Assembly (NCBI GenBank): GCA_046756565.1
Contig: JBHHWO010000003.1
Location: 144 to 64,143, forward strand
Reading direction: 5' to 3'
Length of the DNA: 64,000 nt
From: Thermoanaerobaculia bacterium
GTDB taxonomy: Bacteria; Acidobacteriota; Thermoanaerobaculia; Multivoradales; JAHEKO01
Under the pieces are notes generated by a model that ran no database searches, was not told the origin of the DNA, and saw only the letters and a program-made list of their open reading frames with translations. A program made the translations under genes and the position numbers. Positions 44,971 to 64,000 of the stretch are shown piece by piece. Each line of letters opens with the position of its first letter. Position 1 is the stretch's first letter.

Positions 44971-45795
44971 TTAGGCGGTCTTGCGGGCCGTCGAGCGCTT
45001 CGGCGCCCGCTTGGCCGGTCGCTTGCGCGAGCGTCCGCCCCCGACCAGGCCCGTGATGACGTAGGTGCCGGCGCGCGGGTCCTTCTTGAGCTTGATCAGC
45101 TTGCTCTTCTCCGCGTCCTCCAGGAGCTCGGAGAACGAAGAGTAGCCGTAGTAGCCCTCCGAGAAGGACGGCCGCTTCCTCTGCATGGTCTGCTTGACCA
45201 TCGAGCCCCAGAGAACGTCCTTGTTCTCGCGTTGGAGGGCGTGAATCGAGTCGATCATGAGGGTGAAGGCCTCGGCGTTCTTGTCGGAGACGCCCGACGC
45301 GGTCTTGATCTTCGGGGTCGCCTGCGACTCGCGCCAGACGTCCTCGTAGAAGATGAACTCGTCGCAGTTGTCGATCAGGAGGTTGGCCGACGAGTTCTTG
45401 ACGCCGACGCCGATCACCATCTTGTTGTTTTCCTTCAGCTTGGTCACCAGCGGCGTGAAATCGCTGTCGCCGGTCAGGACGACGAAGGTGTCGATGTGCT
45501 CCTTGGAATGAGAGACGTCCATGGCATCCACGACCATCTTGATGTCGGCCGAGTTCTTGCCGGAGTAGCGCCGCTTCGGGATGTCGATGAGTTCGATTCC
45601 GGCCTCGTGGAACTCGCGCTTGAAGTCGCGGTAGCTCTCCCAGTCGGCGTACGCCTTCTTTACGATGATCTTTCCCTTCTCGACCAGTCGCTCGAGAATC
45701 AGGTTGATGTTGAGTTTCTTGATATCCGAATCGCGCACTCCGAGCGCGATGTTTTCCAGATCGCAGAACAAAGCGATCCGCTTTTCGTCATTCAC
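44971..45795 (-). CDS. NYN (LabA-like PIN-fold) domain protein with C-terminal OST-HTH/LOTUS domain
   Basis: N-terminal ...IALFCDLENI...VLTGDSDFTPLV... (NYN); C-terminal ~70-aa OST-HTH-like region; Lys/Arg-rich tail. Somewhat AT-richer than neighbours. Confidence 0.7.
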   Translation of the reverse strand: MNDEKRIALFCDLENIALGVRDSDIKKLNINLILERLVEKGKIIVKKAYADWESYRDFKREFHEAGIELIDIPKRRYSGKNSADIKMVVDAMDVSHSKEHIDTFVVLTGDSDFTPLVTKLKENNKMVIGVGVKNSSANLLIDNCDEFIFYEDVWRESQATPKIKTASGVSDKNAEAFTLMIDSIHALQRENKDVLWGSMVKQTMQRKRPSFSEGYYGYSSFSELLEDAEKSKLIKLKKDPRAGTYVITGLVGGGRSRKRPAKRAPKRSTARKTA

Positions 45796-49671: not shown

Positions 49672-51555
49672 ATGGGCTTCGAAAGTCTTGCCGCTAGCGC
49701 TTTGCGCCAGGTGCGCATACGAAATCAAGGTGGTCTCGCAGTGACACTCCCGATCGAAGAAGTCCTCGAGGGCAAGTACGAGATCCTCGAGAAGATCGGT
49801 GAGGGCGGAATCGGATCCGTCTACAAGGTCCGCCACCGGTTGCTCGACGAGATCCGGGTCATCAAGGTCCTGCGGCCCCAAGTCGCGGCCAAGGAAGATC
49901 ATCAGGAGCGCTTCCTTCACGAAGCCCGCATGGCGATTCGGCTCAAGCACCCGAACATCGCCCAACTCCACGATTTTTCGATCTCCGACGAAGGCACCGC
50001 CTTCATCGTCATGGAGTTCATCGACGGCATCGCACTCGACGCCCTACTCAAGGCCTCCGGCCCGCCCAGCCTCGATCTGACGCTGGAGATGGCGCAGCAG
50101 TCATTGCGGGCACTGGCCTATCTCCACTCTCATGAGCTGGTTCACCGCGATGTGTCGCCGGACAACTTGATGCTGACCACGTCGTTCGACGGCACCGCGC
50201 GCATCAAGCTGATCGACCTGGGCATCGCCAAGAACCTGGCCGAGGAAAGCAACCTGACACAGACGGGCGTTTTCCTGGGCAAGGTCCGTTACTGTTCACC
50301 CGAGCAGTTCTCGAGCGCGGAAGATCAGACCCGGCCGCTCGATCATCGCAGCGACATCTACTCATTCGGACTACTGCTTTACGAGCTCCTGACCGGTATC
50401 TACCCGTTCAAGGGCGAGACCTTTGCCGAGCTGGCGGGCTGCCATCTGTTCCAGCCGCCGATCGGTTTCGATCAGACGGATCCCGAGGGCAAGGTGCCCG
50501 ATGAGTTGCGCGAGGTCGTGCTGCGATCCATCGCAAAGGATCCCGAGGACCGCTTCTCTACCGCCGAAGAGTTCGTTCAGGAGCTGCTTCCGTTTCGCGA
50601 CACCGAGAGCTCGATCGAGGACGAGCTCAATCGCACGGTCGAGCGAACGACCTCAGCGATCGCTCTCAAGAACTACACTCGCCCGGGTTCCACCCAGGAC
50701 CGTCTGAACGCCGAGTTCGGGCTCGGCACCACGGCCGCGCCCAAGCCGCTGACCGAGGCTCGGCAGCCAGAAGCAGCTGGCGCAAGAGGTACGGCCTCGG
50801 CGGTATTGCCTACAGCCGGCGGCCCGGCCAAGAAATGGTGGTGGATCGCCGGAGGCGGCGCAGCCGTGGTCCTGGCGGGTCTCGGCATCTGGCTCGGTAG
50901 CTCCGTTCTGGGCCGAGACTCGGGCGACACGGCGGGTGACGGCTCCTCCGAGGCGCAGGCTATAGAGATCGCGCAGACCGAGAGATTCACTCTTCCCGAG
51001 GTTGACCCCGACCGGGTGGCTCTCGACGCCGCGCTGCCTCCTCCGCCCACCGGAGACGAAGAGAAAGCGGCCCCTCAGGTCGAACCTGGAACTGATGCTC
51101 CCGGTCCCTCCCAGCTCGGACCGGACCCGGACCCGGAAGACGGACGCCGGCCTCCGCTCGGTGACCCTCAGTTCCAGGGGAGACCCCCACCCCACGGTGG
51201 GCGTCCGCCGCCGGGGAGTCGGCCGGGAGAGCTCGGTCCACCACCGATCGGCCGGACTTCGGAGATCTATGAGACCAGCGTGGGGGTGGTCGCTCCGGTG
51301 CTGGAGATGCTGCCCGAGCCGATGTATCCGGACGGCAAGCGGCCCAAGAACCGTCTCACGGTGGACGTCGCGGTGCTGGTCGACGAGGAAGGCAAGGTGC
51401 TCACCGCCCGGGTCGAGGCCGGCGCAGGGTTTCGGCGCCGCTTTCGCGACGCCGCCATCGAGACCGCGAAGCGATCGAGATTCCGCCCCGCGGTTCGCAA
51501 CGGCGTCGCAGGCCGCATGTGGACCAGTCTCAAGATCGTATTCGAGACCGAGTAG
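49672..51555 (+). CDS. Ser/Thr protein kinase with TM helix, Pro-rich periplasmic linker and C-terminal TonB_C-like domain
   Basis: Kinase motifs IGEGGIGSVYKV, VIKVL, HRDVSPDNLML, DLGIAK, SPEQ. TM WWWIAGGGAAVVLAGLGIWLG. PPxxG-rich spacer. C-terminus ...PEPMYPDGKRPKNRLTVDVAVLVDEEGKVLTARVE...AAIETAKRSRFRPAVRNGV... resembles TonB_C. Confidence 0.8.
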   Translation: MGFESLAASALRQVRIRNQGGLAVTLPIEEVLEGKYEILEKIGEGGIGSVYKVRHRLLDEIRVIKVLRPQVAAKEDHQERFLHEARMAIRLKHPNIAQLHDFSISDEGTAFIVMEFIDGIALDALLKASGPPSLDLTLEMAQQSLRALAYLHSHELVHRDVSPDNLMLTTSFDGTARIKLIDLGIAKNLAEESNLTQTGVFLGKVRYCSPEQFSSAEDQTRPLDHRSDIYSFGLLLYELLTGIYPFKGETFAELAGCHLFQPPIGFDQTDPEGKVPDELREVVLRSIAKDPEDRFSTAEEFVQELLPFRDTESSIEDELNRTVERTTSAIALKNYTRPGSTQDRLNAEFGLGTTAAPKPLTEARQPEAAGARGTASAVLPTAGGPAKKWWWIAGGGAAVVLAGLGIWLGSSVLGRDSGDTAGDGSSEAQAIEIAQTERFTLPEVDPDRVALDAALPPPPTGDEEKAAPQVEPGTDAPGPSQLGPDPDPEDGRRPPLGDPQFQGRPPPHGGRPPPGSRPGELGPPPIGRTSEIYETSVGVVAPVLEMLPEPMYPDGKRPKNRLTVDVAVLVDEEGKVLTARVEAGAGFRRRFRDAAIETAKRSRFRPAVRNGVAGRMWTSLKIVFETE

Positions 51556-51585: not shown

Positions 51586-53811
51586 TTACAGGATCTCGAC
51601 TTCGACCGGGCCTTTGAGCCGCATCATGCAGGCCAGTCGGCACGGGCCGGCTTCGAGCTCACAGATCTCCTCCAGCGTCTCACGCTCCTGATCCGAAAGC
51701 TCGTCCACGTTTTCGGCGCCCGACAACACGCGCACGGGGTCGCTGCCGCAGATTCCGGAATGACACTCCGCGGTGATCTGCACGCCCGCGGCTTCGGCCG
51801 CCTCGCAGACGTTGGACCCGGCGGCAACCGGCACCGACTCGCCGGTACCCTTGAAGGTAGCGGTCGGGCCCTCGGCCGCGGCGCTCCCGTCCGCTTCCCG
51901 GGCAGCGCCAACGGCCGGCGGTGACTCGGCAAGGCCCTCGTCCAGAACCTCCTCGGCGCCCCGGCTGAACAGGAAGGACTGCTGTCCCATGCGGATCCGG
52001 TCTCCGTGCTCCAGGAGGCGCGCGGCGCGGACTTTCAAATAGGTGCCGTTGACGCTTTTGAGGTCCTTGATCAGGATCGCTCCGCCCTCGGCGGACACCG
52101 CGAGATGGCGCCGCGAGAGCGTCGTGTCCTCGGCGTCGAGGATCCCCCCGGGCGCCTCGCGTCCGAAGATCATCGGCTTGTCTCCGAGCTCGTAGCGTCC
52201 CTCCTCGGCGCCCGCTGCGTCGTAGTGAATCACCGCCATTTCGCCGCCATCGATCGAGAACAGCAGGAACTGGCGGCCGACACGCACCAAGTCCCGGTCT
52301 CCGACCTCGATCTTCTTGGCAGCTTGCGCGCGCAGGAAAACGCCCGTGGCTCCACCGTCGTCGCGCACGAAATAGCCTTCCTCGCTGTGCGCCACCGATC
52401 CGTGGACATTCGACAGTGTCGAGTCGTCGGCAAACGCCAGATCACAGCCGGAGCGCCCGATGGTCACGACTCCTTTGACGGGCAGCGGATACTCGTCCTC
52501 CTGGACACCCGTGGGAAGCACGCGAATCAAGAGGGGCCCAGCGGAGACCTCTTCGCGGCCGGGCTCCAGGCTCTCCTCGGGCGGGCCGCTAGGCTCCGCC
52601 GACCCGGCCGGCGTCCCGGCGACGGCGGATTCGGAGACCTCGAGCTCCGCCTCCTGGATCTCGACGTCGATCTGCTCTTTGCCGTCGATCCGCTGCCGGA
52701 TCACCTGGGCCACTCGCACGCCGTCACGCAGGGCCGACTTGATGTTGCCGCGATGCTTGACCTCCTTGAAGCCGGCAGGGTCGGCGTCGAAATCCTCGGT
52801 CTCGAAGTAGGCCTGGCTCAGCAGATCTCCCACCAGGTACAAGTTGTTCTGGCAGGTCTCGAGGCACCGATTGACCACCATGCGCTTCCTGTTCTTGGGC
52901 CCGCCGTTGACCATGTGAACCCCGAACGAGTTGAGGAGGGCTTCCGGAATGTCCTCGCCGATGCAGGCGATGACCTGCGGCTTGGGAAACTCCAGCAGAG
53001 TGAGCTCGCCGGGCCGTCCGTCCATCCGGCGCCGGTCGGTGCGAATCGCCAGGTACTCCTCTCGGTCGTCGCCGGTCAAGACGGCCACCGGCTCGCTGCG
53101 CCGGTAGTAGCGGATGTTGCCGTTGCCGACATAGGCGGCGAAAAACGCATCCGCCAGGGCCTTGGAGATCCTCGGCATCTTGTCGCCGCGGTAGGACCAG
53201 TAGACCGAAGTGCGGTCTCGGGCCTCGCTCTTGGCCTCGGAAATGGCGATCACCGCCTCGGCGGCCGAGGTTCCACCTCCGATAACGCAGGCGGGCTGCC
53301 CGACGAATCGCTCGGCCTCGGAAAGCTTGTAGGCGATGCCGTCGGTATTGCCGGGGATATCGAAGCGACGCGGTACGCCGCGGCCCAGAGCCAGGACCAC
53401 ATGACGGGCTTCGTAATGCTCGCTTTGGCGTGTCCGGTGGTTCCACAGTGTCGCGCGATAGCCGCCGTTTTCGAGTAGCTCGAGCTCCGAGAGCTCGGCG
53501 CCCACCCGGACCGGAACCTCGTGCTCTCGATAGAGCTCTTTCCATTGCTCGCACATGTCGTCTTTGTCGATCGGATCAAAATGGAGACAGGAGACCAGGT
53601 TCCCTCCCACCGGGAAGCACATCTGATCGCCGCCACCGAAGCTCGGCAGGATCAGCTTGTCCTTGGCGTAGTCGCGAATGCGCTTCATCAGGTCGTCGTA
53701 GTCGACCACCAGAACGCCGATGCCGAGCTCGACCGCGCGGAAGGCCGTGGCCGTACCGGCCGGGCCACCGCCGGCGATGAGAACGTCCACCGTTTTCGAA
53801 GACCCAGCCAT
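51586..53811 (-). CDS. Multidomain protein: two-dinucleotide-binding FAD/NAD(P) oxidoreductase, two FHA domains, C-terminal ferredoxin-like (2Fe-2S-type) domain
   Basis: VLIAGGGPAGTA and VIGGGTSAAEA Rossmann motifs. FHA 1: TIGRSGCDLAF...VFLR...VGRQFLLF. FHA 2: IFGRE...LSRRHLAV...IKDLKSVNGTYLKV...GDRIRMGQQSFLF. C-terminus ...AECHSGICGSD...CRLAC.... ATG at 53811 (4 bp after the upstream gene's stop); the track extends to 53889. Confidence 0.7.
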   Translation of the reverse strand: MAGSSKTVDVLIAGGGPAGTATAFRAVELGIGVLVVDYDDLMKRIRDYAKDKLILPSFGGGDQMCFPVGGNLVSCLHFDPIDKDDMCEQWKELYREHEVPVRVGAELSELELLENGGYRATLWNHRTRQSEHYEARHVVLALGRGVPRRFDIPGNTDGIAYKLSEAERFVGQPACVIGGGTSAAEAVIAISEAKSEARDRTSVYWSYRGDKMPRISKALADAFFAAYVGNGNIRYYRRSEPVAVLTGDDREEYLAIRTDRRRMDGRPGELTLLEFPKPQVIACIGEDIPEALLNSFGVHMVNGGPKNRKRMVVNRCLETCQNNLYLVGDLLSQAYFETEDFDADPAGFKEVKHRGNIKSALRDGVRVAQVIRQRIDGKEQIDVEIQEAELEVSESAVAGTPAGSAEPSGPPEESLEPGREEVSAGPLLIRVLPTGVQEDEYPLPVKGVVTIGRSGCDLAFADDSTLSNVHGSVAHSEEGYFVRDDGGATGVFLRAQAAKKIEVGDRDLVRVGRQFLLFSIDGGEMAVIHYDAAGAEEGRYELGDKPMIFGREAPGGILDAEDTTLSRRHLAVSAEGGAILIKDLKSVNGTYLKVRAARLLEHGDRIRMGQQSFLFSRGAEEVLDEGLAESPPAVGAAREADGSAAAEGPTATFKGTGESVPVAAGSNVCEAAEAAGVQITAECHSGICGSDPVRVLSGAENVDELSDQERETLEEICELEAGPCRLACMMRLKGPVEVEIL

Positions 53812-53815
53812 CTCT

Positions 53816-54670
53816 TCAACCTTCCTCGACCAAACGTCCCTCGAGGCGGCCGAAGACGACCCGCTCTCCGACCGGAAGCTCGACTTCACCCTCCGTCTGG
53901 GCGCCCGCCACGAACGTGTGGTTGCGGCTGCCTTCGTCGCGCACCAGCACCTTGTCGCCCGTCACGGTCACTACCGCGTGACGGCGAGAGACGTCCGGGA
54001 CGTTCAGGCGCACTCGGGCGTCCTTGGTGCGACCGACGAGGTTTTCGCCCTCGTCGAGCTGGAAGCGCTGGACTCGGCCCGCCATCTGGAGCTCCAGAAA
54101 CAGGCGGCGGCCGGGCGCACCCGGCTGCGCAGGCCTGCTTGCGCTCGCGCTCGCCTCGGCCAGGATCTCGGGAATCGGCACGACGACCTTCTCGACACGA
54201 GTACCGCCGTCGTCCGCCAGCTCCTTGGACGCGGCCGGCTTCTTTTCTGCCAGCTCGTCCTCGGACCGCTTCTCCTCGGCTCCGTCGTCGCGCAGGGCCG
54301 CCGGCAGAATTGGGATCTCGCCGTCCGTTTGCGTCTTGTCGACGGGAGGGATATCGATGGTGTCGAACTCACCGCCTTCGGTATCGAGAGCCTGAAAGAT
54401 AAACCTCTCGCTACCGCCGAAGCAGACCATGCTGAGCGGACCGATCGGCTCCGGCCGCTCGAGGCGCACGCCGTCCACTTCGGTGCCGTTCAGGCTTCCG
54501 AGGTCCTCGATCAGATACCTCTCGCTGTCGGTATCGAACGCAATCCGGGCGTGCTCGGTCGACACCACCGAAGCCTGGATGCACACCGTGCTCTCGGCCG
54601 AGCGCCCGATCGTGGCCTCGGCGCCGATCTCGAACTCACCGTGCTCGCGTGATATCAGTTTTGCCTTCAT
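53816..54670 (-). CDS. Tandem FHA-domain protein
   Basis: FHA 1: ...ATIGRSAESTVCI...VSTEHARIAF...YLIEDLGSLNGTEVDGVRL.... FHA 2: ...LVGRTKDARVRLNVPDVSRRHAVVTV..VLVRDEGSRNHTFV.... ATG at 54670 overlaps the upstream stop by 4 bp. Confidence 0.75.
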   Translation of the reverse strand: MKAKLISREHGEFEIGAEATIGRSAESTVCIQASVVSTEHARIAFDTDSERYLIEDLGSLNGTEVDGVRLERPEPIGPLSMVCFGGSERFIFQALDTEGGEFDTIDIPPVDKTQTDGEIPILPAALRDDGAEEKRSEDELAEKKPAASKELADDGGTRVEKVVVPIPEILAEASASASRPAQPGAPGRRLFLELQMAGRVQRFQLDEGENLVGRTKDARVRLNVPDVSRRHAVVTVTGDKVLVRDEGSRNHTFVAGAQTEGEVELPVGERVVFGRLEGRLVEEG

Positions 54671-56247
54671 GGTGCTTCGTCCAAGTACAAGAGTAGCTCC
54701 GACCGGCGACTCTTGTTGGGGTGGAACAGGTGGCACGTGACACAGCGATCCGACGCCAGGCGAGCGGCATGGCACCGCCGGCAGGAGTCGATCGCCGGCA
54801 GGTTCTGGATCGACGCGTTATCGAGGCTCGTATCCGGAGGGTCTTCGGCTTCGAGCTCGTCTTCGATCGGGATGCGGTCGTGGCAATCCAGGCAGCGCGC
54901 CTGCAGGATGTGCGCGCGATGATCGAACTCCGCCCGCCGCAGGGCTCGCTGGTCCTTCTGGACACGGCCGATGGTGGCGTCCTCGACCCGGTGACACTGC
55001 CTGCAGGGCGTCGTCAGCTCTTCGACCAGAAGCTCGATCGAGACCACCTCGTCTTCCGAGAGGTCGGTGCTCTTATCGCCCAGGGCCAGCTCGAAGACCG
55101 TCTCGTCGAGCGCCGCGAACGGCTCTTCCACCTCGCGCGCGAGCTTTCCGAGGAGATCCTCGATCGCGGCCAGCTCGGCCTGAATCTCTTGCTCCGGCCG
55201 GCCCCGCAACCCGATCGCCTGCTCCTCGAGGGCGCCGATGGCCTCTCTATAGAGCGCTCGCAACTCATGGGGCTCGGTGTTCGGCGAGGTCTCGAGGAGA
55301 TCGGCCAAACCCGCGCTCGGATAGAGCATCTGGCGCAGCATGCGCAGGTTCTCCAGAATCCACGGATCTCGGTGGTGGACCGGCCCCTTCACGACCAGGG
55401 AACCGCGGCGGCGATACTCGTTGGGGTCGGTGAAATACGCCCAGCGGATGCCCGCGCCCTGGTCGGCGATGATCTGCTCGAGTGTAGCCACGCCTGGTGC
55501 TCCAGCGCCGGTGCGGATCGGTAGCCCCGGAGTCGAGACCGTCGACGTCAGGTGGCAGGAGTCGCAGTGCCGATCGAAGTCGATCAGCTCGAAGCTCCGG
55601 CCATCCGGTTTGGCGTTATGGCAGTAAAGGCAGGATCTTTCGACGTCGGTGAGCTTCTGGCGCTTCATCACTTCGCGTACGTGGTGAACGTGGGCAAATG
55701 ACAGGCTCTCGTTATCTGCGATCTGCTCGGCGACGAAGTCGAACTCGGGGTGCTCGCTCGTGAAGGAATCGAAATGGCATCGCTCGCAGCGCTGGTCGGC
55801 GACACGAGTGATCGAGGCATCCCGGCCCTCGTGCTCGAGGTGACAGGTGAAGCACGGCACCTCGTGCTCTCCCGGCACCAGGCGGCGGAAATCGTCGGAC
55901 CGGAAGATGTAGTGAGCAGCGAAGTTGTACACACCCAGCTCATCCCCGAATTTTTCGTGACAGCTCGAACAGAGCTCGTCACTCGCCTGTCGCGCTTCCG
56001 GATCGTGGCAGCTCGCGCACTCACTCTCGAAGGCGGCGTGATTGGACGACAGTGGACCATTTGAAGACAAGGAGCCACGGCCCATGAACTCGTCGACCGC
56101 TATGACGCCGAGTACCAACCCGATCAGAGCCGCTCCCAGGAGCAGCATCTTGTTGCGCGCCGGTCGCGGCGGGTACGCATTGGCGACGGGAAGCTCGCTT
56201 TCGCCGAAGCTCCCTTTCTGGCCGGTCCACTTGTCCTTGGGGCTCAT
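54667..56247 (-). CDS. Membrane-anchored decaheme c-type cytochrome
   Basis: Ten CxxCH motifs (CASCH, CSSCH, CFTCH, CERCH, CLYCH, CDSCH, CRQCH, CLDCH, CRRCH, CVTCH). N-terminal signal anchor MLLLGAALIGLVLGVIAV. ATG at 56247 with a GGAG RBS. The track extension to 56415 overlaps the upstream gene. Confidence 0.8.
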   Translation of the reverse strand: MSPKDKWTGQKGSFGESELPVANAYPPRPARNKMLLLGAALIGLVLGVIAVDEFMGRGSLSSNGPLSSNHAAFESECASCHDPEARQASDELCSSCHEKFGDELGVYNFAAHYIFRSDDFRRLVPGEHEVPCFTCHLEHEGRDASITRVADQRCERCHFDSFTSEHPEFDFVAEQIADNESLSFAHVHHVREVMKRQKLTDVERSCLYCHNAKPDGRSFELIDFDRHCDSCHLTSTVSTPGLPIRTGAGAPGVATLEQIIADQGAGIRWAYFTDPNEYRRRGSLVVKGPVHHRDPWILENLRMLRQMLYPSAGLADLLETSPNTEPHELRALYREAIGALEEQAIGLRGRPEQEIQAELAAIEDLLGKLAREVEEPFAALDETVFELALGDKSTDLSEDEVVSIELLVEELTTPCRQCHRVEDATIGRVQKDQRALRRAEFDHRAHILQARCLDCHDRIPIEDELEAEDPPDTSLDNASIQNLPAIDSCRRCHAARLASDRCVTCHLFHPNKSRRSELLLYLDEAP

Positions 56248-56260
56248 GAGCTCAGCTCCG

Positions 56261-57103
56261 CTAGTAGCGGAGCACCCCCCAAAGATGGAGCCCGAGAAAG
56301 ACGAGCAGCAGAAGCGACGTCGGAACGTGCAGCCAGAGCCAGGCACGCAGGGCCTGTTGCAGTGTGTAGTGCGCGTCGATCTCGAACTTGGCCCGGTAGA
56401 GCTCTTCCAGCTCATCGAGCTTTTCGGCCTCTTCCTCGGGCAGCTTCTCGCGCAGATAGCGGACCGATCGGAGTCTCTCCCGGATACCGCCGGTGATGTC
56501 GAAGAAATAGACCCACCGACGGTTCGGCGCTTGGAGCTTCGTCGCCATCGCGCTGTCGTGCAGATCCCGGATCTCGGTGGCGCTCGAGGCGGCCAGCTCT
56601 GCGGCCCGGGCGCGAATGTCGTCTACGAGCTCCGGAATCCTCTCGTAGAGCACCTCGGTCGACAGACCCGAGGTCATCAGGCGTGGGATCCAGCGCTGCA
56701 TCCCTCGCCCCGCGAGACCGCCGATCACCGTCCAGATGCTCAAGCCGAGCAGCCAGATGGTCACCCATCCCTCGGGCATTCCGAAACCACTGTGAACAAG
56801 AACCAGGAGCAGGAAGAGCGCGCCCCCATACACGTGGAGCACGAGCCAGAGGCGCGACCGGCCGAGGCCGAGGCGGCTGAAGAACGACATCGCCCGCTTG
56901 CGGGCGCTGAGCGCGGTGACCAAGAGCAGCAGCGCCGCGGCGGACCAGCCGAAGATGAGGCTGAGGGTTCCGCCCGGCGCCGCGTCCCACCAGATCGTTC
57001 CGGCGGCATACGCCGACACGACCGCCAGGCACAGGAGCACAAAGCCCCAGACGCCACCGAGTGGAGCTCCCGGCACCGAGAGACCGCTACCCGGTTCGGC
57101 CAT
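56261..57103 (-). CDS. Integral membrane protein with ~5 TM helices and four TM-embedded His (putative di-heme b-type cytochrome)
   Basis: ATG at 57103 in a TGATG junction with the upstream gene. TM helices contain ...LVLHVYGG..., ...LVHSGFG..., ...LWLHVPT..., ...LGLHLWG.... The 355-aa N-terminal extension in the track (to 58168) is an out-of-frame shadow of the upstream gene. Confidence 0.6.
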   Translation of the reverse strand: MAEPGSGLSVPGAPLGGVWGFVLLCLAVVSAYAAGTIWWDAAPGGTLSLIFGWSAAALLLLVTALSARKRAMSFFSRLGLGRSRLWLVLHVYGGALFLLLVLVHSGFGMPEGWVTIWLLGLSIWTVIGGLAGRGMQRWIPRLMTSGLSTEVLYERIPELVDDIRARAAELAASSATEIRDLHDSAMATKLQAPNRRWVYFFDITGGIRERLRSVRYLREKLPEEEAEKLDELEELYRAKFEIDAHYTLQQALRAWLWLHVPTSLLLLVFLGLHLWGVLRY

Positions 57104-58746
57104 CAGGCATCCCCCGTCAAGAGCAATTGAAACTCGTCCAGCGAGCCGATCCGAAACGCGCAGCCCTGCGGGCAGTTGCTGACGCAGGCCGGTCCGTGCC
57201 CCGTGTCCTCGCACAGGTCGCACTTCGAGGCGACCGCCCGGTTCCGTCCCCGCAGGCCGGTCGGAACCATGTCGTCGGGCCACACGGTGGCGGTCTCGTG
57301 CATCACGATGGCGTCGTAGGGGCAGTTGTTGGCGCAATTCGAGCATCCGATGCATACATCCTCGTCGACCGCCACGACTTCGCCGACACCGGCGCGGTGA
57401 ATCGCACCTGTCGGGCAGCCCACCAGGCATACCGGATCGCGACAGTGGTAGCAGGATTTGGCGACCAGCAGATTGCCGTACTTGTTGCCCTCGCGCACGA
57501 AGCGCGGCCTGCCGCCGTGTGTGTCCGCGCAGGCCCGCACGCAGTCGTCGCAACGGGTGCAGGTGTTGAGGTCGATCGCCAGGATGCTGTTGCCCTGGAC
57601 AAGGCCGCTGCGCAGCGCCACTTCGGTGAATTCGGCAAAGCCCACATTGCGGCGCGAGAAACCCGCTTCGCGAATTCGATCGGTGGCGCTCTGCCAGAGC
57701 TGGTCCTCGATCTCCGGCTGGCTCTGAATCAGCTGCTCGACCACCGTCCGGGGGATCTTGATCAGCTCCGCATACTCCACTGACAGTGCAGTCGACTGCC
57801 ATTCGTCCAGGGCCTCGACCACGAACTCGACTTCGCCCAGGGTCATTCCCTTCGACAGATAGGAGACCGCGATCTCGCCGTCGGCGTAGCCCTGCATGAG
57901 CTTGACGAAGCCCGAGCGAACGAGATAAAGGCAGTCGGCGGCCTCCCCGGCCTTGACGATCTCCTCCTCCGGCTCGCACGACACCAGCTCGACATTCTCC
58001 TTGAGCGCGTCGACAAAGACGTCGGTGCAGCCCTGGAAGAGCGGCGTGTTCTTGAGCTGAACCGCCAGCGAGCGCTCCCGGTACAGCTCGTCGAGCTCGG
58101 CCTTGAGCGCCTTCGACTTGCGCTTCATCAGCCGGAGCGCCGCCACCTTGATCTGGACCAGGCGGCACTCGCCGGCGGTCCTGGCGGTCACCGACTGCGG
58201 CCAGCCGCTCATCGAGCCGATCTCACCGATCAGCTCACCCTTGCCCAGGCGCGCCGCTGCGCCCTCAGGCAGATCGAAGTCCATGGTGGCGAGCAGCGTG
58301 ATCCGGCTCGGATCGACCCGAGTCGCCCTGCGCATCAGGACAGTGCCGCCGGCCACGGTGTCGGTCGGCGATTCGGCCGGCGAAGCTCCGATCACCGTGC
58401 GTGAAAGATCGAAGATCGGCCGGGCTCCAGTGGCTTCCGGCCCGACGCCCTGAACGAAGACTTCGACTTCGCCCTCGAGAACGTAAAACGCCAGATCGAT
58501 GTAGGTCCCCTCTTCGAAGAGAACCGAGCCGTTCGCCCAGCGCGCGATCGAGATATCGGGGCTGATCTTCTCGAGGAACCTGTCGTCGAAATCCGAGAAC
58601 AGCTCAATCGCCTTGAGCTCCTCGACCGACGGCTTGTCCGAGATCTCTGCCAGGCCGCTCTCGTCGTCGTACGAGGACCAGCGATCCCGGTACTGCTCCA
58701 ACCGGCGAAACTCGGTCTTGCCCGGCCCGAGGACCTCGTCGCTCAT
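57103..58746 (-). CDS. Fusion of two cyclic-nucleotide-binding (CAP-effector) domains with an NrfC/DmsB-like 4x[4Fe-4S] ferredoxin module
   Basis: CNB 1: ...ELFSDFDDRFLEKI...FEEGTYIDLAFYVLEGEVEV...GELIGEIG...RSVTARTAGEC.... CNB 2: ...LFQGCTDVFVDAL...GEAADCLYLVRSGFVKL...GEVEF.... FeS: CTRCDDCVRAC, CYHCRDPVCLVGCP, CIGCSNCANNCP, CDLCEDTGHGPACVSNCP. No Tat or Sec signal. Confidence 0.8.
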   Translation of the reverse strand: MSDEVLGPGKTEFRRLEQYRDRWSSYDDESGLAEISDKPSVEELKAIELFSDFDDRFLEKISPDISIARWANGSVLFEEGTYIDLAFYVLEGEVEVFVQGVGPEATGARPIFDLSRTVIGASPAESPTDTVAGGTVLMRRATRVDPSRITLLATMDFDLPEGAAARLGKGELIGEIGSMSGWPQSVTARTAGECRLVQIKVAALRLMKRKSKALKAELDELYRERSLAVQLKNTPLFQGCTDVFVDALKENVELVSCEPEEEIVKAGEAADCLYLVRSGFVKLMQGYADGEIAVSYLSKGMTLGEVEFVVEALDEWQSTALSVEYAELIKIPRTVVEQLIQSQPEIEDQLWQSATDRIREAGFSRRNVGFAEFTEVALRSGLVQGNSILAIDLNTCTRCDDCVRACADTHGGRPRFVREGNKYGNLLVAKSCYHCRDPVCLVGCPTGAIHRAGVGEVVAVDEDVCIGCSNCANNCPYDAIVMHETATVWPDDMVPTGLRGRNRAVASKCDLCEDTGHGPACVSNCPQGCAFRIGSLDEFQLLLTGDA

Positions 58747-60914
58747 CGCGATCCTCCTGTCGATCCACCGGAACCGTCAGCGCGGCCGGCCGAGACATTG
58801 GTCGGGCTGACCAGTTTGTAAAGCTCCCGGAGCCGTTTCTGAACCGCCAGGAGAAGCTCCTCGATCGACGCTTCGCCCACCTTGGGAAGCGGTTTGAAAT
58901 CCACGCCCCCCGATGCAATTCCCGCCGCCGAGCCGACGGTGGCCCCCGGGGTCAGCGGTCGCGGCGTCGGCGGGCGGAGTACCCACTCTTCCGAGCGGCG
59001 CTGCTCGGCGAACGTCGTCGTCGACCGAACCGATCCCGAGCTTTCACTCGAGCTCGCACTCTGCCCACGACCGCCCCCGGAAGAGCCCGCCGGCAGCGTC
59101 GCCACGCGCACGTCGGGTACCGGGCCCCGGGACGCGATCACGGCCCTCGCCGACGACGAGATCTCGCCGTCCGCCAGCCGGTGCTGCCAGTGGCGCACTT
59201 CGTTCATGCCGCGCACATAGTCGAAGTCCGACCCGGACGGATGCCCTGCCGACAGCAGGCGCCGATCGGTGACGTAGTGGCAGCCGGTGCAGGTCTCGGC
59301 CCGCGTCTTCGACTGGCGCAGATCCTTCTTGCCCAAACCGAGCGCCGCCAGGTGCCCGGGCCGCTGCCGGCCCAATTCTTTGCCGGCTTCGTTCTTGTGC
59401 GGCTCGAGCCAGTCCGCCGCGGGCCCGTGGCAGCTCTCGCAACCGACCCCGTCGAGCACCTCCCGCGACTCCTTGCCCGAGAGAATCGTGCCGTGGCAAT
59501 CCATGCACACCGCGCGACCGGTGGTCATTTGCGATGTCTTGACGCCATAGAGGCGCGCGATCCTGAGGACGTCGGGATCGCCGTCGAAGAACGGATTCAC
59601 CGAGCGGGAGTGCTCATGACCGAACCACCATTGGTTCTGCTCGGTGTGACAGCCGGCGCAATTGACCGGACCGATGGTCCTACGCTGCGAAGCCGGCCGG
59701 ATACGGATCTTGAACCCTCCCGCGACCCCCGCCGCCCCGGTCGATGCTGCTCGGGCGCCCGGCTCCGCAGAGGCGCCGCCGCTCGAGGCGGGCACGGTCG
59801 AGCCGGGAGAGCTTCCTTCGCTCGGCGGAGTCCGATCTCGCACACCGGAAGCACCGCCACCCGCGGCCGGGGTCCCGTCGGCCGCGGCGACCTCGAAGTC
59901 TTCCTCGGGCTCGATTCCACGAACCAGGTCATCGAGAGATGCGAGCTGCGATGCGTCGGCAGCGCCCAGAAAGCTCCTCGTCGCGCGCGCGATCGTGTCG
60001 GCGGCAGCGAGGAGAGACGCCTCGTTGCCGGGCACCGTGCGCACAGCCTTGACCGCGGCCAGCATCTCATCGACCTGAGAGATCCCGGCTGCGCGGCTGA
60101 CCGCTCGCAACTCGGACACCGCGCTTCGCACCCTGCGGCTCATCGCTTTCGAATAAATGCCGTCGACGGTCGCCTTGGCCATTCCGCGCAGGCTGTACTC
60201 GAGATCGAGCGCCCGGCCGACGACGTACATAACGCGCTTGCGCGACATGGAACGTTCGCGATTGACCGGATCGGTACGGTCGCGAAAGGATCTCAGGAAG
60301 TTGTGTCGAATCTGACCCTGGCTCCACTCGACCAGCTCGAAGCCGGCGCTGCCGGTCGTGTGTCCCCCTTCGTTCACGAGACGTTCGAGCGGTACCGAGT
60401 GGCAGCTGAAGCAGTTCGCGGCGACCGGATACAGGTCGGACGGCCGCCGCATTCCGGCGTTGCGGCTGTCCGCGATGCGCTGGCGGCGGTGCGCTGCCGA
60501 TTCTCCCGTATGGTCCTCGGCCGCACCGTAGTCGTTGTGGACGTCGAGGTAGTCCGCCCCGGCGCCGTGACACGACTCGCAAGAGACGCCCGAGACCACT
60601 CGGATCTGCCCGCTCTGGATGACCGGCGTGTAGTGGCAGCTGAAGCAGAGGCTGTCGCGCTTGATCAGGCGAAAGCCCATCTTTTTGGCGATCGTCTCCG
60701 CCTGCTCCTTCTTGTGAAGTGTCTTGAATCCGGTCGCGTGCGGAGTTGTCTTCCAGACCACCGCCTCGTGGATGTGGCATTCACCGCATTTCTCCGCCGT
60801 AACCACCTTGTTCGGGTCGATCTTGGCGTACTCGAAGAAGGGCGGTTGGGCCCGCAGGGGCGCGCACAGCGCCAGGCCGATCAGCAACACCCCCGCTACG
60901 ACTGGTCGTTTCAC
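58743..60914 (-). CDS. Secreted octaheme c-type cytochrome with Ser/Gly-rich low-complexity segments
   Basis: Signal peptide MKRPVVAGVLLIGLALCAPLRAQ. Eight CxxCH motifs (CGECH, CFSCH, CESCH, CFSCH, CAGCH, CMDCH, CESCH, CTGCH). Confidence 0.8.
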   Translation of the reverse strand: MKRPVVAGVLLIGLALCAPLRAQPPFFEYAKIDPNKVVTAEKCGECHIHEAVVWKTTPHATGFKTLHKKEQAETIAKKMGFRLIKRDSLCFSCHYTPVIQSGQIRVVSGVSCESCHGAGADYLDVHNDYGAAEDHTGESAAHRRQRIADSRNAGMRRPSDLYPVAANCFSCHSVPLERLVNEGGHTTGSAGFELVEWSQGQIRHNFLRSFRDRTDPVNRERSMSRKRVMYVVGRALDLEYSLRGMAKATVDGIYSKAMSRRVRSAVSELRAVSRAAGISQVDEMLAAVKAVRTVPGNEASLLAAADTIARATRSFLGAADASQLASLDDLVRGIEPEEDFEVAAADGTPAAGGGASGVRDRTPPSEGSSPGSTVPASSGGASAEPGARAASTGAAGVAGGFKIRIRPASQRRTIGPVNCAGCHTEQNQWWFGHEHSRSVNPFFDGDPDVLRIARLYGVKTSQMTTGRAVCMDCHGTILSGKESREVLDGVGCESCHGPAADWLEPHKNEAGKELGRQRPGHLAALGLGKKDLRQSKTRAETCTGCHYVTDRRLLSAGHPSGSDFDYVRGMNEVRHWQHRLADGEISSSARAVIASRGPVPDVRVATLPAGSSGGGRGQSASSSESSGSVRSTTTFAEQRRSEEWVLRPPTPRPLTPGATVGSAAGIASGGVDFKPLPKVGEASIEELLLAVQKRLRELYKLVSPTNVSAGRADGSGGSTGGSR

Positions 60915-62410
60915 TAGAACTTCAAGACCAGTTCAAAGCGTCCGCCAAAGCCGGTCAGGTCGTCCGAGGCGCCGAGGCCCTCGATGTAGCTCGCGAAGCC
61001 GTCCCAGACCAGGACCACGTGTTTTCCCTTGGCCATCTGGTAGCGAACGGTCGCGGCAGCCTGGTTAGCCACTCCGGAGGCCGTTCCGACCCGAAGACCG
61101 AGTTCGCCGAGCAGCTGGCGGCGAGCCAAGGGACCGTAGAACTTCTGGTAGCCGATCGCGCCGCCGGCGACGTTCCGCGCCCGGCTCGACAGCGGCGCCC
61201 CGTAGTTACCCAGGCCGACCGCGGCAAACGAGACTCCCGCGGGACCCAGCGGCCCGCCCGAAGCCGGCCCACTCGCCGCCGCCGAGTACTCGTCGAGCGC
61301 CAGGAAAGTCGTGAAATAGAACAGATCGAAGCTGTGGTGCGGGGTCCAGGACACCTCGCTGAAGAGCAGCGTGCCGTCGGTGGCAAACGCAGTCTCCTCG
61401 TCCAGGGCAAGCGAGCTCAGGAGTCGAAACGACGTATTGATTTTCCCGATGCGCTGAACCGCACTCACACCGACGCCGACAAGATCGCCGCTCGAGTCGC
61501 TACCGGTCACGTAGGCGAGATCGACATCGATGGTCGAGGTCCGGACATCGGTCGAGGTCAATACCGCAAACAGCTCGGCGTCGCCGTCTTCCACATTGTT
61601 GCGATGCAGGTCGCTCGCCCCGAAGAACAAGGTCGCTCGAAAGTTCGACGTGTTCTTGGGCAACAGGGTGTTGCGAGTGATCCCGACGCCATCTATCGAG
61701 TCATTGATCAGCATGCCTTCCTGGAAGATCAACAGCTGCCGGCCGATCGAGAAACCGACGTCGGTGCGTCCGAAGTCCTGCTTGTCGATCCCCGGAAAAA
61801 TCTCGCCGAACTCACCCTCGAAGTACAGACTCTGGATCTCGGCGTTGAGCTCATCGCGGAAGGCGTCGTCGTCGCCAAACAGCGCCTGGAACTCGGGGCT
61901 CCGCGAGCTGGGCTCGAGGATGTAGCTGGTGAACCGGCCGTCCTGGTCGAAATTGCGGAAACCCAGCACCAGCCGCTCGGTTCCGGTGAGCTGCAAGTTG
62001 GCGAACAGATCGAGCCGATTGGCCCACTCGGTGATCCGGAAGTCGTCGACCTCGAAACTCTGGATCGCGCTGCGCAGCGTGCCGAAAACGATCAAGGTCG
62101 GCTGCCACACGGCGCCGGTCGGAAGCTTGAACCCCGGATTGATGTTGCCGGTGCCCAGATACGGATTGCCCAGCTCGAGCAGAAGCCGTGGCCGCTCGGG
62201 AAGATCCTCGAGCAGCGGAATGTACTCGTCGGTAACCGCGCTCGAGTCATGGGCGCCGTCGTCGCTTTCGCCGTGCGCCTCCCCGACCTCGGGGTCTGAA
62301 GCGACTTCCACCGCGACCGCCGCATGGGCCGGTACACCGGCTCCGGTGGCAAGCAACAGAATCAGACCACCGGCCGCCGCGAGGAGTCCGAGGTCTCTCC
62401 TGCGAGTCAT
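60914..62410 (-). CDS. Outer-membrane beta-barrel protein (porin-like) encoded inside the cytochrome operon
   Basis: Signal peptide ...LLAAAGGLILLLATGAGVPAHA. Alternating amphipathic beta-strand pattern throughout. C-terminus ...GGRFELVLKF ends in the aromatic residue typical of OMP terminal strands. Confidence 0.6.
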   Translation of the reverse strand: MTRRRDLGLLAAAGGLILLLATGAGVPAHAAVAVEVASDPEVGEAHGESDDGAHDSSAVTDEYIPLLEDLPERPRLLLELGNPYLGTGNINPGFKLPTGAVWQPTLIVFGTLRSAIQSFEVDDFRITEWANRLDLFANLQLTGTERLVLGFRNFDQDGRFTSYILEPSSRSPEFQALFGDDDAFRDELNAEIQSLYFEGEFGEIFPGIDKQDFGRTDVGFSIGRQLLIFQEGMLINDSIDGVGITRNTLLPKNTSNFRATLFFGASDLHRNNVEDGDAELFAVLTSTDVRTSTIDVDLAYVTGSDSSGDLVGVGVSAVQRIGKINTSFRLLSSLALDEETAFATDGTLLFSEVSWTPHHSFDLFYFTTFLALDEYSAAASGPASGGPLGPAGVSFAAVGLGNYGAPLSSRARNVAGGAIGYQKFYGPLARRQLLGELGLRVGTASGVANQAAATVRYQMAKGKHVVLVWDGFASYIEGLGASDDLTGFGGRFELVLKF

Positions 62411-64000
62411 CGTCCCGCCTCCCCGGTCGCGGCGCCTCCGGTGCCACCGGCCGTCCGGACTTCCCCGACCCGGGCCTCGATCTCCTGCTGCCAGAGCACC
62501 TGATGGCCGGCGACCACCCGCTCGGCAATCTGTTTGGTCGTCAGGCCATAGTCGAAACCGACGATCCTGATTCGGTTGACCAGGTTGACCGGCAGCATTC
62601 CGGCCACCAGCTCGACCCGGATCTTGTAGGTCCCCGAACCGCTGAGCTGGGACGGCTTCACCTTGTACTTCGGGTAGCGCCGGCCGGCGGGCTCGATATT
62701 CTGCTTGTGCTTGCGCGCCCCGCGCGGCCGGCCGGTGAGAATCGTCGAGGTCGTCGACGGCCGCAGAAACGGCAGCGGATCGGGCGAGAAGTTGAGTGCC
62801 AGAATCTGCTCGCGCTCGCCGCCGCGCACCATCCGGGTCAAGAACCGGCCCTGGAGGCTGAACAGCTGCTTGTCGAGCGGCAGCTCGCCGTTGTGGACGT
62901 AGAGCGAGTGGTTGTCGCGCAGATCGCCGTTGGGATCGAGATCGCCGGACCGGAAAACGACGTTGCCGTCGGGGCCGGTTACAGTCACCCGCAGGAATAC
63001 CACTCGCTCGGCGTCGAATCCCGTCGGCACGCCGTGCCCGTCGGTGCCATTGGCGACCTCGACCTGAAACACCAGGCCCTTCTCGGGATCGGCCTTCAGA
63101 ATCTCGACGCCCATCAAACGGTAGGCCACGCGGAGAATATGACGGCGCTGGCGATTGGCCTCGGCCAGAAGCTCGATGTTGTCGGTCAGGATGTCGCGAG
63201 CGTCGTAGCGGTCATCGGCCGAGCTCCAGTGCTCGGGAAACTCGTAGTCCTCGGCCACATTTGTCTCGAACTCGTCCGTGCCCCAGCCGGCCTCGTGGTC
63301 GTAAGTCAGCCACTGCCGGATAGTTGCCAGCTCCGAGGCGGCGGTGTTGTGCGGAAAGATTCCGGGATGGATGACCGAGTGGTCAGGCCCGATAAACATG
63401 TGGTTGGTGATCCGTCGTGTCCGCGTCGGCTTGCCGCCGACCACGGCGGCAGGGCCCTCCGGGTAGCCCGAGTCCACACCCGGCTCCGTGCCCATGTGGC
63501 AGTCCTGGCAGGAGACGCCCTTCCTGGCCGCCGGCGAGGTCTTGAACTCGCTGAACGCCTCTTCCAACCGGAAGCCGTTGACCAGATTCACATCGTGACA
63601 GGTCGCGCAAAAGCCCGAAGTGGTGAGCTGTAGGAATTTCTCTGCCTTTCCGTGGATCGCTCGCCCAGCCTTGCCCCGCTCGGGATTCACCCGGTAATCG
63701 GAGCTCTCGATGACGCGCGCGACCTCGACGTTGCCCTCGGGACCGTAGACGGGATCGAAAAGGTCACCGCGCTCGATCGCCAGGCGACCGGAGAGCTTGC
63801 CGTAGTTGCGGTTGACGCGATGGCAGACGACGCAGGTCACGCCCTCGCGCGAGGTCGGGTGCCGGTCCATGTTGGTCATGAACTCGGGCTCCTCGAGATT
63901 CATCCCTACCGGATCGTGGCAGCGGATGCAGAAGTCTCCGTTGGTGCCGTTGGTGATGACCAGGACCGCCCCCTGCATCGCGTTGAAGATCGGGCTCATC
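62407..64000 (-). CDS. Multiheme c-type cytochrome, partial (N-terminus lies beyond the window end)
   Basis: At least four CxxCH motifs in the visible part (CIRCH, CVVCH, CATCH, CQDCH). The frame is open to the window edge. Stop overlaps the OMP start (ATGA-type, 4 bp). Confidence 0.7.
   Translation of the reverse strand, partial: MSPIFNAMQGAVLVITNGTNGDFCIRCHDPVGMNLEEPEFMTNMDRHPTSREGVTCVVCHRVNRNYGKLSGRLAIERGDLFDPVYGPEGNVEVARVIESSDYRVNPERGKAGRAIHGKAEKFLQLTTSGFCATCHDVNLVNGFRLEEAFSEFKTSPAARKGVSCQDCHMGTEPGVDSGYPEGPAAVVGGKPTRTRRITNHMFIGPDHSVIHPGIFPHNTAASELATIRQWLTYDHEAGWGTDEFETNVAEDYEFPEHWSSADDRYDARDILTDNIELLAEANRQRRHILRVAYRLMGVEILKADPEKGLVFQVEVANGTDGHGVPTGFDAERVVFLRVTVTGPDGNVVFRSGDLDPNGDLRDNHSLYVHNGELPLDKQLFSLQGRFLTRMVRGGEREQILALNFSPDPLPFLRPSTTSTILTGRPRGARKHKQNIEPAGRRYPKYKVKPSQLSGSGTYKIRVELVAGMLPVNLVNRIRIVGFDYGLTTKQIAERVVAGHQVLWQQEIEARVGEVRTAGGTGGAATGEAGR

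Follow-up and report, generated by a model that had tools for sequence, protein, structure and literature searches.

Organization of the locus

The 64,000-nucleotide stretch of Thermoanaerobaculia DNA analyzed here (called the window throughout) ends in eight minus-strand genes that, according to our start-codon analysis, run head-to-tail from 51586 to beyond 64000. On sequence grounds, this locus is the ptd operon, whose redox core has already been named ptdABCDEFG by Elbon, Stewart & Glass 2023 (bioRxiv 10.1101/2023.11.21.568154), and it can reasonably be read as encoding a regulated envelope-spanning redox chain. The gene order in the window is ptdA-B-D-E-F-G-[fha]-C, in which the bracketed gene encodes a tandem-FHA protein that has no name in the ptd paper. 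The genes, numbered G1 to G8, and the convergent kinase gene next to them are as follows.

ptdA (G1), 62407..64000, minus strand: multiheme c cytochrome, 5'-truncated by the window edge, with four CxxCH motifs in the window and a C-terminal heme-free domain of ~340 amino acids (aa)
ptdB (G2), 60914..62410, minus strand: predicted outer-membrane (OM) beta-barrel porin of ~18 strands, with a signal peptide and a C-terminal Phe
ptdD (G3), 58743..60914, minus strand: secreted octaheme c cytochrome with two c554-like tetraheme modules and low-complexity linkers
ptdE (G4), 57103..58746, minus strand: cytoplasmic protein with two CRP/CNBD-fold domains and a four-[4Fe-4S] ferredoxin module
ptdF (G5), 56261..57103, minus strand: membrane protein with five transmembrane (TM) helices, predicted di-heme b electron carrier
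ptdG (G6), 54667..56247, minus strand: periplasmic decaheme cytochrome with an N-terminal membrane anchor
tandem-FHA gene (G7), 53816..54670, minus strand: two FHA domains (Pfam)
ptdC (G8), 51586..53811, minus strand: TrxR/YpdA-type two-Rossmann flavoprotein with two FHA domains and a [2Fe-2S] ferredoxin domain
receptor-type Ser/Thr kinase gene, 49672..51555, plus strand, convergent: cytoplasmic Pkinase domain, one TM helix, periplasmic TonB_C-like domain

An earlier reading of this DNA, made from the letters and their translated open reading frames (ORFs) alone and called the sequence-only reading below, had described eight head-to-tail minus-strand genes with such products, and all of these ORFs and domain calls hold. 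Every domain call in the operon lies at or above the Pfam gathering score; PtdB and PtdF matched no Pfam or NCBIfam model. CxxCH motifs number four in the partial ptdA ORF, eight in ptdD and ten in ptdG, and the motifs of the three cytochromes, 23 in total, are all conserved across orthologues. The partial gene at the edge had been credited with at least four hemes, which is borne out by its full-length orthologues, all of which (23/23) carry five CxxCH motifs.

The genes are tightly packed. ATGA overlaps join G1 to G2 (62407-62410), G3 to G4 (58743-58746) and G6 to G7 (54667-54670), a TGATG overlap at 57103 joins G4 to G5, and G2 and G3 overlap by 1 bp at 60914 (TAG/GTG). The two remaining junctions are gaps of 13 bp (G5/G6, 56248-56260, ahead of the ATG at 56247) and 4 bp (G7/G8, 53812-53815, ahead of the ATG at 53811). 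The sequence-only reading had all positions and gap sizes right but took the junction at 60914 for TGATG. Between the end of the kinase gene (51555) and the G8 stop (51586) lie 30 bp. Judging from the junctions and packing together with the conserved synteny described below, the eight genes would form a single transcript. Terminator-like sites inside the operon occur at chance level (9 found compared with 8.3 expected), the promoter/terminator scan was uninformative on operon transcription, and Rfam gave no match in the window.

In a relative with a 4-Mb sequence (L002), the cluster starts with ptdA, which encodes 595 aa there, and pyruvate-dehydrogenase genes (E3) lie upstream. Therefore, ptdA is probably the outermost ptd gene on this side, with only ~65 of its codons likely missing from the window. 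The sequence-only reading had expected the operon to continue past 64000, and this expectation was abandoned.

Identity with the ptd operon

The assignment was made through the Sulfidibacter locus (L044). By exact-sequence look-up, its G4 orthologue is QTD51415 (PtdE) and its G1 orthologue is QTD51412 (PtdA); Table S7 of the ptd paper lists Sulfidibacter corallicola QTD51412-51417 and QTD51419 (bioRxiv 10.1101/2023.11.21.568154). Through these orthologues, G1 corresponds to PtdA, G2 to PtdB, G3 to PtdD, G4 to PtdE, G5 to PtdF, G6 to PtdG and G8 to PtdC. The gene omitted from that listing, QTD51418, was found by the same look-up to encode a tandem-FHA protein orthologous to G7, and the Sulfidibacter PtdC (QTD51419) directly follows this FHA gene, as in the window. 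The two loci are syntenic throughout, with 36-69% identity.

As published, the system consists of a pentaheme PtdA, a porin PtdB, an FAD/NAD(P) oxidoreductase PtdC, a periplasmic tetraheme PtdD, a cNMP-binding/4Fe-4S PtdE, a ferric-reductase-like membrane protein PtdF and a decaheme PtdG, and its function 'remains completely unknown' (bioRxiv 10.1101/2023.11.21.568154). All seven named components are present in the window locus, the PtdB porin gene adjoins that of PtdA, and the order E-F-G is kept in almost all loci. Nevertheless, the window differs from the published description in several respects. Its PtdD is octaheme, a duplicated tetraheme, rather than tetraheme; its PtdE has four Fe-S motifs, whereas two are stated in the paper (bioRxiv 10.1101/2023.11.21.568154); its ptdC stands last and encodes two FHA domains and a [2Fe-2S] domain; and it has, in addition, a tandem-FHA gene and a Ser/Thr kinase associated with the operon. 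The words 'FHA' and 'kinase' are absent from the text and supplements of the ptd paper (bioRxiv 10.1101/2023.11.21.568154). The sequence-only reading had not recognized the operon as a described system; this no longer applies to the redox core, and only the FHA/kinase layer is unreported there. What goes beyond the ptd paper is the FHA/kinase association, the four histidines of PtdF, the gene fusions, the porin class and the degenerate cNMP cassettes. Our literature search found no later paper using the ptd gene names, no description combining multiheme cytochromes with FHA and cNMP domains, and nothing relevant on extracellular electron transfer in Thermoanaerobaculia or on Sulfidibacter cytochromes.

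Conservation, fusions and variant loci

A scan of one genome per species for PtdE homologues returned 58 loci with close homologues and four weak Nitrospirota matches limited to the Fe-S region. The carriers belong to the Acidobacteriota (including Sulfidibacter corallicola M133), Rhodothermales, Calditrichia, Ignavibacteriales, Candidatus Troglogloeales, Zixibacteria and KSB1, and include Cytophagia metagenome-assembled genomes (MAGs). Synteny in relatives had been set beforehand as a refutation test of the sequence-only reading; the order G1-G2-G3-G4-G5-G6-G7-G8 proved to be kept across these phyla, with 25-87% identity (tblastn, window proteins). According to the ptd paper, further carriers are found among marine Alpha- and Gammaproteobacteria, Nitrospirales and Planctomycetes, and the cultured Tistlia and Roseibium are carriers as well (bioRxiv 10.1101/2023.11.21.568154).

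Two kinds of natural fusion were found. In P0362, P0399, P0468 and P0492 (771-856 aa), a cNMP-Fer4 protein (PtdE) continues into the PtdF membrane domain; these PtdE-PtdF fusions form at least four representative clusters, some of them possibly gene-calling read-through of the 1-bp TGATG junction. The other kind joins PtdC-like and PtdE-like parts and comes from a distant ptd-like trio (L063) on the 959-kb conjugative megaplasmid pMSHV of Sphingobium herbicidovorans (NZ_CP020539, 804886-826049). This trio encodes an 825-aa Pyr_redox-cNMP-cNMP-Fer4 fusion, then a homologue of PtdF, which hhalign supports with a probability of 98.6% and with the His positions in alignment, and a cytochrome c3-family protein of 599 aa. 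Genes for metallophosphoesterases and for a multiheme cytochrome of 1,329 aa lie on its flanks, FHA domains are absent from it, and eleven other Sphingobium plasmids have the fusion gene as well.

The ends of the operon vary. Several loci without ptdAB (L027, 1709-8889; L035, 1622-8840; L070, L074 and L089) have another three-gene module upstream of ptdD, whose products are a ~560-aa protein (HbpS-like in L035), a ~565-aa protein that has a signal peptide and a ~1,230-aa decaheme protein carrying LVIVD repeats. It thus seems that the E-F-G-FHA-C core is a constant unit for electron delivery whose ends can be exchanged. A short variant (L035, L039-L043, L047, L055, L090, L093 and L095) occurs in Cytophagia, KSB1 and unclassified MAGs and has the order tetraheme PtdD-like gene, ptdE, gene for a ~340-aa protein without a family, and gene for a fusion of a Ser/Thr kinase with an FGE-sulfatase domain; PtdF and PtdG are missing from their usual place after ptdE.

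Input and membrane components

PtdC combines Pyr_redox_2 (E-value (E) 1.6e-16, with Pyr_redox_3 also matching), FHA in two stretches (1.4e-15) and Fer2 (5.8e-6, above the gathering score) in Pfam. It has dinucleotide-binding motifs at residue 14 (GGGPAG) and residue 178 (GGGTSA), its C-terminal Fer2 domain has four conserved Cys, and its PDB matches are YpdA/Bdr, TrxR-type FNR, GarA/OdhI and a ferredoxin. The flavin-FHA-FHA-[2Fe-2S] architecture is conserved across phyla.

PtdE matches cNMP_binding in two stretches (E 7e-24) and several Fer4 families in Pfam. Its four Cys motifs of the CxxCxxCxxxC(P) type (residues 396-406, 432-444, 465-475 and 509-525) are invariant in every Cys across phyla, and its C-terminal 150 residues align with HycB, NrfC and PsrB (HycB3, E 2.7e-16). 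No signal peptide and no Tat signal were found in it. The sequence-only reading had seen two cNMP-sensing domains in this protein; the fold call stands, but sensing of cAMP or cGMP is doubtful. A canonical phosphate-binding cassette reads G-E-...-R-[ST]-A, with the Arg binding the cyclic phosphate. In the domain 1 cassette, GEIGxMSGWPQSVTA, Gln occupies the position of the phosphate-binding Arg in 118 of 118 sequences, and the same position of domain 2 is E in 57, Q in 42 and R in 14. Binding of cAMP or cGMP is therefore unlikely judging from these residues, and the CNBD pair more plausibly binds some other ligand or makes contact with a protein.

PtdF combines five TM helices with a helical insert of ~110 residues, which its positively charged loops are predicted to place in the cytoplasm. 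Four histidines, H90 and H104 in TM3 plus H259 and H273 in TM5 (spacing 14/14), do not vary among 71 close and 44 cross-phylum sequences. A 14/14 His spacing on two helices is that of cytochrome b of the bc1 complex and, nearly so, of NOX. The pattern fits a di-heme b transmembrane electron carrier. The PtdF family comprises 1,288 clusters at 50% identity (E<=1e-10) and has no Pfam model.

PtdG has ten CxxCH motifs, all conserved in 37 orthologues, and one TM helix at residues 34-52. Its residues 1-26 (window 56170-56247, minus strand) contain the motif K-G-[S/T/F]-F-x4-L-P-V-A-x2-Y, in which K11 and Y25 are invariant in 37 sequences, and through this cytoplasmic N-terminal motif PtdG may dock to PtdF or PtdE.

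Periplasmic and outer-membrane components

The export that the sequence-only reading had expected of the cytochromes is supported by signals of the general secretory type on PtdA and PtdD and by the TM anchor of PtdG. No conserved lipobox or N-terminal Cys was found among the orthologues of these three proteins. PtdD is not a lipoprotein, because its N-terminal Cys is not conserved.

PtdD matches Cytochrome_C554 in two stretches (Pfam, E 8e-24) and the structure of cytochrome c554 (PDB 1bvb, E 4e-9). Its halves align as homologues (E 3e-12), the four heme motifs of one in register with those of the other, and tetraheme forms occur in the short-variant relatives. In addition, residues ~330-400 and ~590-723 (window 59700-59930 and 58746-59150, minus strand) are Ala/Gly/Ser/Pro-rich low-complexity stretches, which may be flexible tethers that let the tetraheme modules span the periplasm.

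The N-termini of full-length PtdA orthologues are hydrophobic, and mature PtdA has no Cys outside the heme motifs. The heme domain matches the pentaheme c552 of Thermochromatium tepidum (PDB 5ze8, E 1.5e-12), with NrfA much weaker, and the ExtKL NCBIfam model gives a weak score. MccSep of the Geobacter ExtKL family is a periplasmic polysulfide reductase whose catalysis needs selenocysteine and a His/Cys heme. Like MccSep/ExtKL, PtdA consists of two parts, a pentaheme domain and, C-terminal to it, a domain free of heme; the latter is Ig-like in MccSep and a beta-sandwich in PtdA according to the ptd paper (bioRxiv 10.1101/2023.11.21.568154). In addition, the PtdA gene is paired with a porin gene, as that of ExtKL is with ExtI. 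A G-H-x-[IV]-P-x-G motif of PtdA matches the published selenocysteine peptide of MccSep, although this is a short motif aligned by eye. In the same by-eye alignment, the position of the selenocysteine is Phe in 23 of 24 sequences, and the ORF has no in-frame TGA. Unlike MccSep, PtdA lacks the selenocysteine/Cys catalytic features, and its C-terminal domain is longer. Judging from its sequence, PtdA is a relative of the MccSep enzymes and not a member. We also considered PtdA as an MccSep-type polysulfide reductase; the lack of selenocysteine or Cys ruled this out.

As modeled, PtdB is a barrel of ~18 strands whose best fold matches are substrate channels; it thus has a predicted 18-strand substrate-porin fold and not that of an MtrB-like sheath. 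Apart from the barrel, an N-terminal extension of ~40 residues is strongly conserved (residues ~24-91, window 62135-62340, minus strand), with S57, L66, P71, R73, P74, E79, G81 ... G93 invariant in 56 sequences. The AF2 model gives this extension a predicted local distance difference test score (pLDDT) <50, that is, as predicted disordered, and it may be a plug or a PtdA-binding segment.

The FHA/kinase layer

The G7 product matches FHA in two stretches (Pfam, E 3e-30), with GR...SxxH...N[GH]T signatures at residues 22-40/61 and 213-231/250. The phosphothreonine (pThr)-binding residues GR, SxxH and NG are kept in three of the four FHA domains of the operon, namely G7 FHA1, G7 FHA2 (N-H) and PtdC FHA2 (GR, SRRH, NGT); PtdC FHA1 lacks the Asn and is less conserved. 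The kinase in the window matches Pkinase (E 5.9e-45) and TonB_C in Pfam, with its TM helix at ~392-413.

For the occurrence of this layer, 43 loci with enough flank were evaluable, drawn from the genome set and 80 metagenomic loci; the genome scan returned none of the Proteobacterial ptd loci of the source paper, and the metagenomic loci carry no taxonomy. FHA domains are present in 35 of the 43, the PtdC flavin domain in 32 and a Ser/Thr kinase in 25, 15 of these kinases being co-directional. In the genome set, ~30 kinases lie in the 215 kb that are inside the cluster or <=3 kb from it, compared with 3 in the 185 kb farther out, an enrichment of about nine-fold. The position of the kinase gene changes among lineages: in Thermoanaerobaculia relatives it is convergent after ptdC and has a TonB_C tail as in the window, in Rhodothermales it is divergent upstream, in Calditrichia (Pkinase plus PEGA) it overlaps ptdG inside the operon, and several metagenomic lineages have the kinase gene downstream of ptdC. 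In the short ptdD-ptdE-kinase variant, it stands two genes past ptdE (Pkinase plus FGE-sulfatase). That the linkage persists despite rearrangement and the swapping of sensor domains speaks for a functional kinase-ptd association.

The proposal of the sequence-only reading that four FHA domains and an adjacent Ser/Thr kinase accompany the operon is therefore supported, by Pfam and by the conserved position in most loci. Its further proposal, electron flux gated by both Thr phosphorylation and cyclic nucleotides, is retained only for the first part, since the FHA/kinase association is conserved and gating by cAMP/cGMP is unsupported in view of the missing canonical phosphate-binding Arg in the CNBD domains of PtdE. 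The closest known parallel is GarA/OdhI with PknG/PknB: the FHA domains of G7 and PtdC match GarA, OdhI and FhaB, and a Hanks-type kinase is the neighbor here. In contrast to that system, Ptd has FHA domains within an electron-transfer flavoprotein, where they stand between the flavin module and the ferredoxin module. The literature searched yielded no account of FHA domains in a component of respiration or of extracellular electron transfer.

Two candidate sites, T204 of PtdF (D-x-T-G-G-I) and residue 13 of PtdG (K-G-[S/T]-F), were considered as universal FHA targets and ruled out, as substitutions by Ala and Phe show that they are not conserved across phyla.

The window holds a second Ser/Thr kinase gene at 9318-11630 (minus strand), which encodes 770 aa with an N-terminal Response_reg domain and a Pkinase domain; its catalytic domain is 32% identical to that of the ptd-adjacent kinase.

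Discussion

Starting from what is observed directly, namely the gene organization, domains, invariant ligands, porin fold, synteny, fusions and ptd identity, we provide a putative mechanism for the Ptd system. The flavoprotein domain of PtdC would take electrons from NAD(P)H in the cytoplasm and pass them through its fused [2Fe-2S] cluster to the four [4Fe-4S] clusters of PtdE. The inner membrane would be crossed by way of two b hemes held by the four invariant His of PtdF. On the periplasmic side, the electrons would travel by way of the decaheme PtdG, which is anchored in the membrane, and the octaheme PtdD to the pentaheme PtdA, which is most likely the terminal reductase of a small oxidant entering through PtdB. 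The flux would probably be set by threonine phosphorylation: the membrane Ser/Thr kinase with its periplasmic sensor would make pThr sites, and the FHA pair of PtdC and the tandem-FHA protein would read them, so that the electron-input module docks or is released. The path from PtdC through PtdE and PtdF to the hemes is supported by the natural PtdC-PtdE and PtdE-PtdF fusions and by the predicted topology. We infer the binding of heme b by PtdF, the nature of the acceptor, the phospho-switch and, from the usual potentials of these cofactors, the direction of flow. Junctions, domains and cross-phylum synteny uphold the earlier view of one tightly packed operon encoding a redox chain from the cytoplasm to the OM. 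For the whole reading, a quinone-independent envelope-spanning NAD(P)H chain with PtdA as the terminal component and regulation by pThr, we estimate a probability of roughly 0.55.

Parts of this chain resemble known systems. The two His pairs of PtdF, 14 residues apart on two TM helices and placed to stack two b hemes, recall NOX/FRE/STEAP and the cytochrome b of bc1, and as in NOX/FRE/STEAP the electrons are proposed to come from NAD(P)H through a flavin. However, PtdF has 5 TM helices rather than 6 and a ~110-residue cytoplasmic insert, and the flavoprotein is a separate TrxR-fold protein with five Fe-S clusters interposed. PtdE, PtdF and the cytochromes likewise form the trio of Fe-S protein, membrane subunit and multiheme c protein known from NrfC/PsrB/HybA/DmsB/HycB and Geobacter Cbc. 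In the NrfC/PsrB/Cbc systems the Fe-S subunits are periplasmic and serve quinol oxidation, whereas PtdE is cytoplasmic, lacks a Tat signal and has an N-terminal CNBD pair. The likeness to Geobacter Cbc pointed out in the sequence-only reading is thus a loose one, as the Ptd Fe-S protein is cytoplasmic and the chain appears to be flavoprotein-fed rather than quinol-fed. Assignment to the Geobacter Cbc-type family was ruled out on the cytoplasmic Fe-S subunit.

The sequence-only reading and Elbon et al. offered another explanation, a true conduit for extracellular electron transfer, in which a porin-cytochrome complex of PtdA and PtdB would pass electrons across the OM to minerals, electrodes or partner cells. 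As in MtrCAB and the Geobacter Pcc system (OmaB-OmbB-OmcB), multiheme genes stand beside an OM barrel gene and would provide an envelope-spanning heme chain; translation of the porin gene is coupled to that of a multiheme cytochrome gene and these genes invariably occur together, 23 c hemes suffice to cross the periplasm, and the alternative outer module of relatives includes a very large decaheme beta-propeller protein. Moreover, the source phylum, Acidobacteriota, includes metal reducers. Sheath barrels have 26 strands in MtrB and ~20 in OmbB, and the ~18 strands predicted for PtdB fall below this range of 20-26. In addition, ptd has no surface lipoprotein multiheme cytochrome, none of its cytochromes has a conserved lipoprotein signal, and its input is a cytoplasmic flavoprotein/Fe-S/heme b route and not a quinol dehydrogenase such as CymA, ImcH or CbcL. 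The operon is also present in aerobic marine heterotrophs (Sulfidibacter) and nitrite oxidizers. The Geobacter-type porin-cytochrome assignment thus finds no support, and because of the 18-strand substrate-channel fold, the lack of a lipoprotein cytochrome and the enzyme relatives of PtdA, we favor reduction of a small solute by PtdA over an Mtr-like sheath. We regard the conduit as unlikely, but as an explanation that deserves serious attention.

It is improbable, in our estimation, that the chain runs inward, with a low-potential donor oxidized at PtdA and PtdF/PtdE passing electrons to PtdC for the reduction of NAD(P)+ or ferredoxin. FNR-type flavoproteins and multiheme chains are reversible, and the T. 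tepidum c552 relative is of low potential and comes from a sulfur oxidizer. Furthermore, ptdAB is highly transcribed in sulfide-/formate-oxidizing Alphaproteobacteria of oxygen-deficient zones (bioRxiv 10.1101/2023.11.21.568154). However, there is no coupling-ion or quinone module to drive such an uphill transfer, the hosts are mostly heterotrophs with ample NAD(P)H, and we recognized no donor-oxidizing catalytic residue in PtdA. Still less probable is a redox-sensing signaling device, in which the hemes and Fe-S clusters would report the periplasmic redox state to a pathway of CNBD-fold, FHA and kinase domains. Four FHA domains, two CNBD-fold domains and an adjacent kinase make an unusual density of signaling-type domains, and the extracytoplasmic domains of the kinase vary by lineage (TonB_C, PEGA, FGE-sulfatase). 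Nonetheless, ~30 redox cofactors with an NAD(P)H flavoprotein and a porin far exceed known redox sensors, and the operon encodes no output domain (DNA-binding, cyclase or the like).

Several points weigh against the NAD(P)H chain that we prefer. The direction of flow is not readable from sequence, as FNR-type enzymes are reversible. PtdF matched no heme-protein family at threshold, and its fold matches were weak and generic. PtdA has neither the selenocysteine/Cys nor the His/Cys heme of MccSep, so that its catalytic role is only an analogy. The 23 c hemes exceed the need of a periplasmic enzyme and fit extracellular transfer equally, and the replacement of PtdAB by the decaheme LVIVD protein fits extracellular transfer equally well. 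On the regulatory side, no conserved phospho-acceptor Thr was found in the Ptd sequences, and no kinase lies closer than 10 kb to some complete loci, that of Sulfidibacter included.

As a multiheme system, Ptd is very widespread, with ~1,300 clusters at 50% identity for PtdF alone. Its wiring diagram (NAD(P)H, FAD, [2Fe-2S], four [4Fe-4S], two heme b and 23 heme c) rests on invariant ligands and fusions, and the conserved FHA/Ser-Thr-kinase layer gives a concrete handle on regulation; together, they turn an operon of 'unknown function' into testable hypotheses. Cultured carriers exist in Sulfidibacter corallicola M133 and, according to the ptd paper, Tistlia and Roseibium. The labels 'cNMP-binding' and 'porin-cytochrome extracellular electron transfer' should not be used at face value. 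Tentatively, we raise the possibility that Ptd is the first electron-transport chain with Hanks-kinase/FHA pThr control inside its electron-input subunit. The FHA pair of PtdC and the tandem-FHA protein would then be a phospho-switch that couples or uncouples a NOX-like quinone-independent drain of NAD(P)H electrons to the periplasm or cell surface, according to an envelope signal sensed by the kinase.

Other features of the window

ARAGORN reported a tRNA-like element at 48465-48557 (minus strand), of undetermined amino acid and with a 4-nt anticodon (gccc). It lies inside a radical-SAM (CofH/MqnC-like) ORF at 47859-48995 (plus strand), Rfam gave no tRNA there, and it is probably a false positive. 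Two further minus-strand genes encode a Roadblock/LC7 (MglB-like) protein (42609-43088) and a protein with NYN-ribonuclease and OST-HTH/LOTUS domains (44971-45795); they have no relation to the ptd cluster, and their neighbors are otherwise housekeeping genes, which encode UvrD, GlmS, GlmU, an RseP-like M50 protease and glycosyltransferases.

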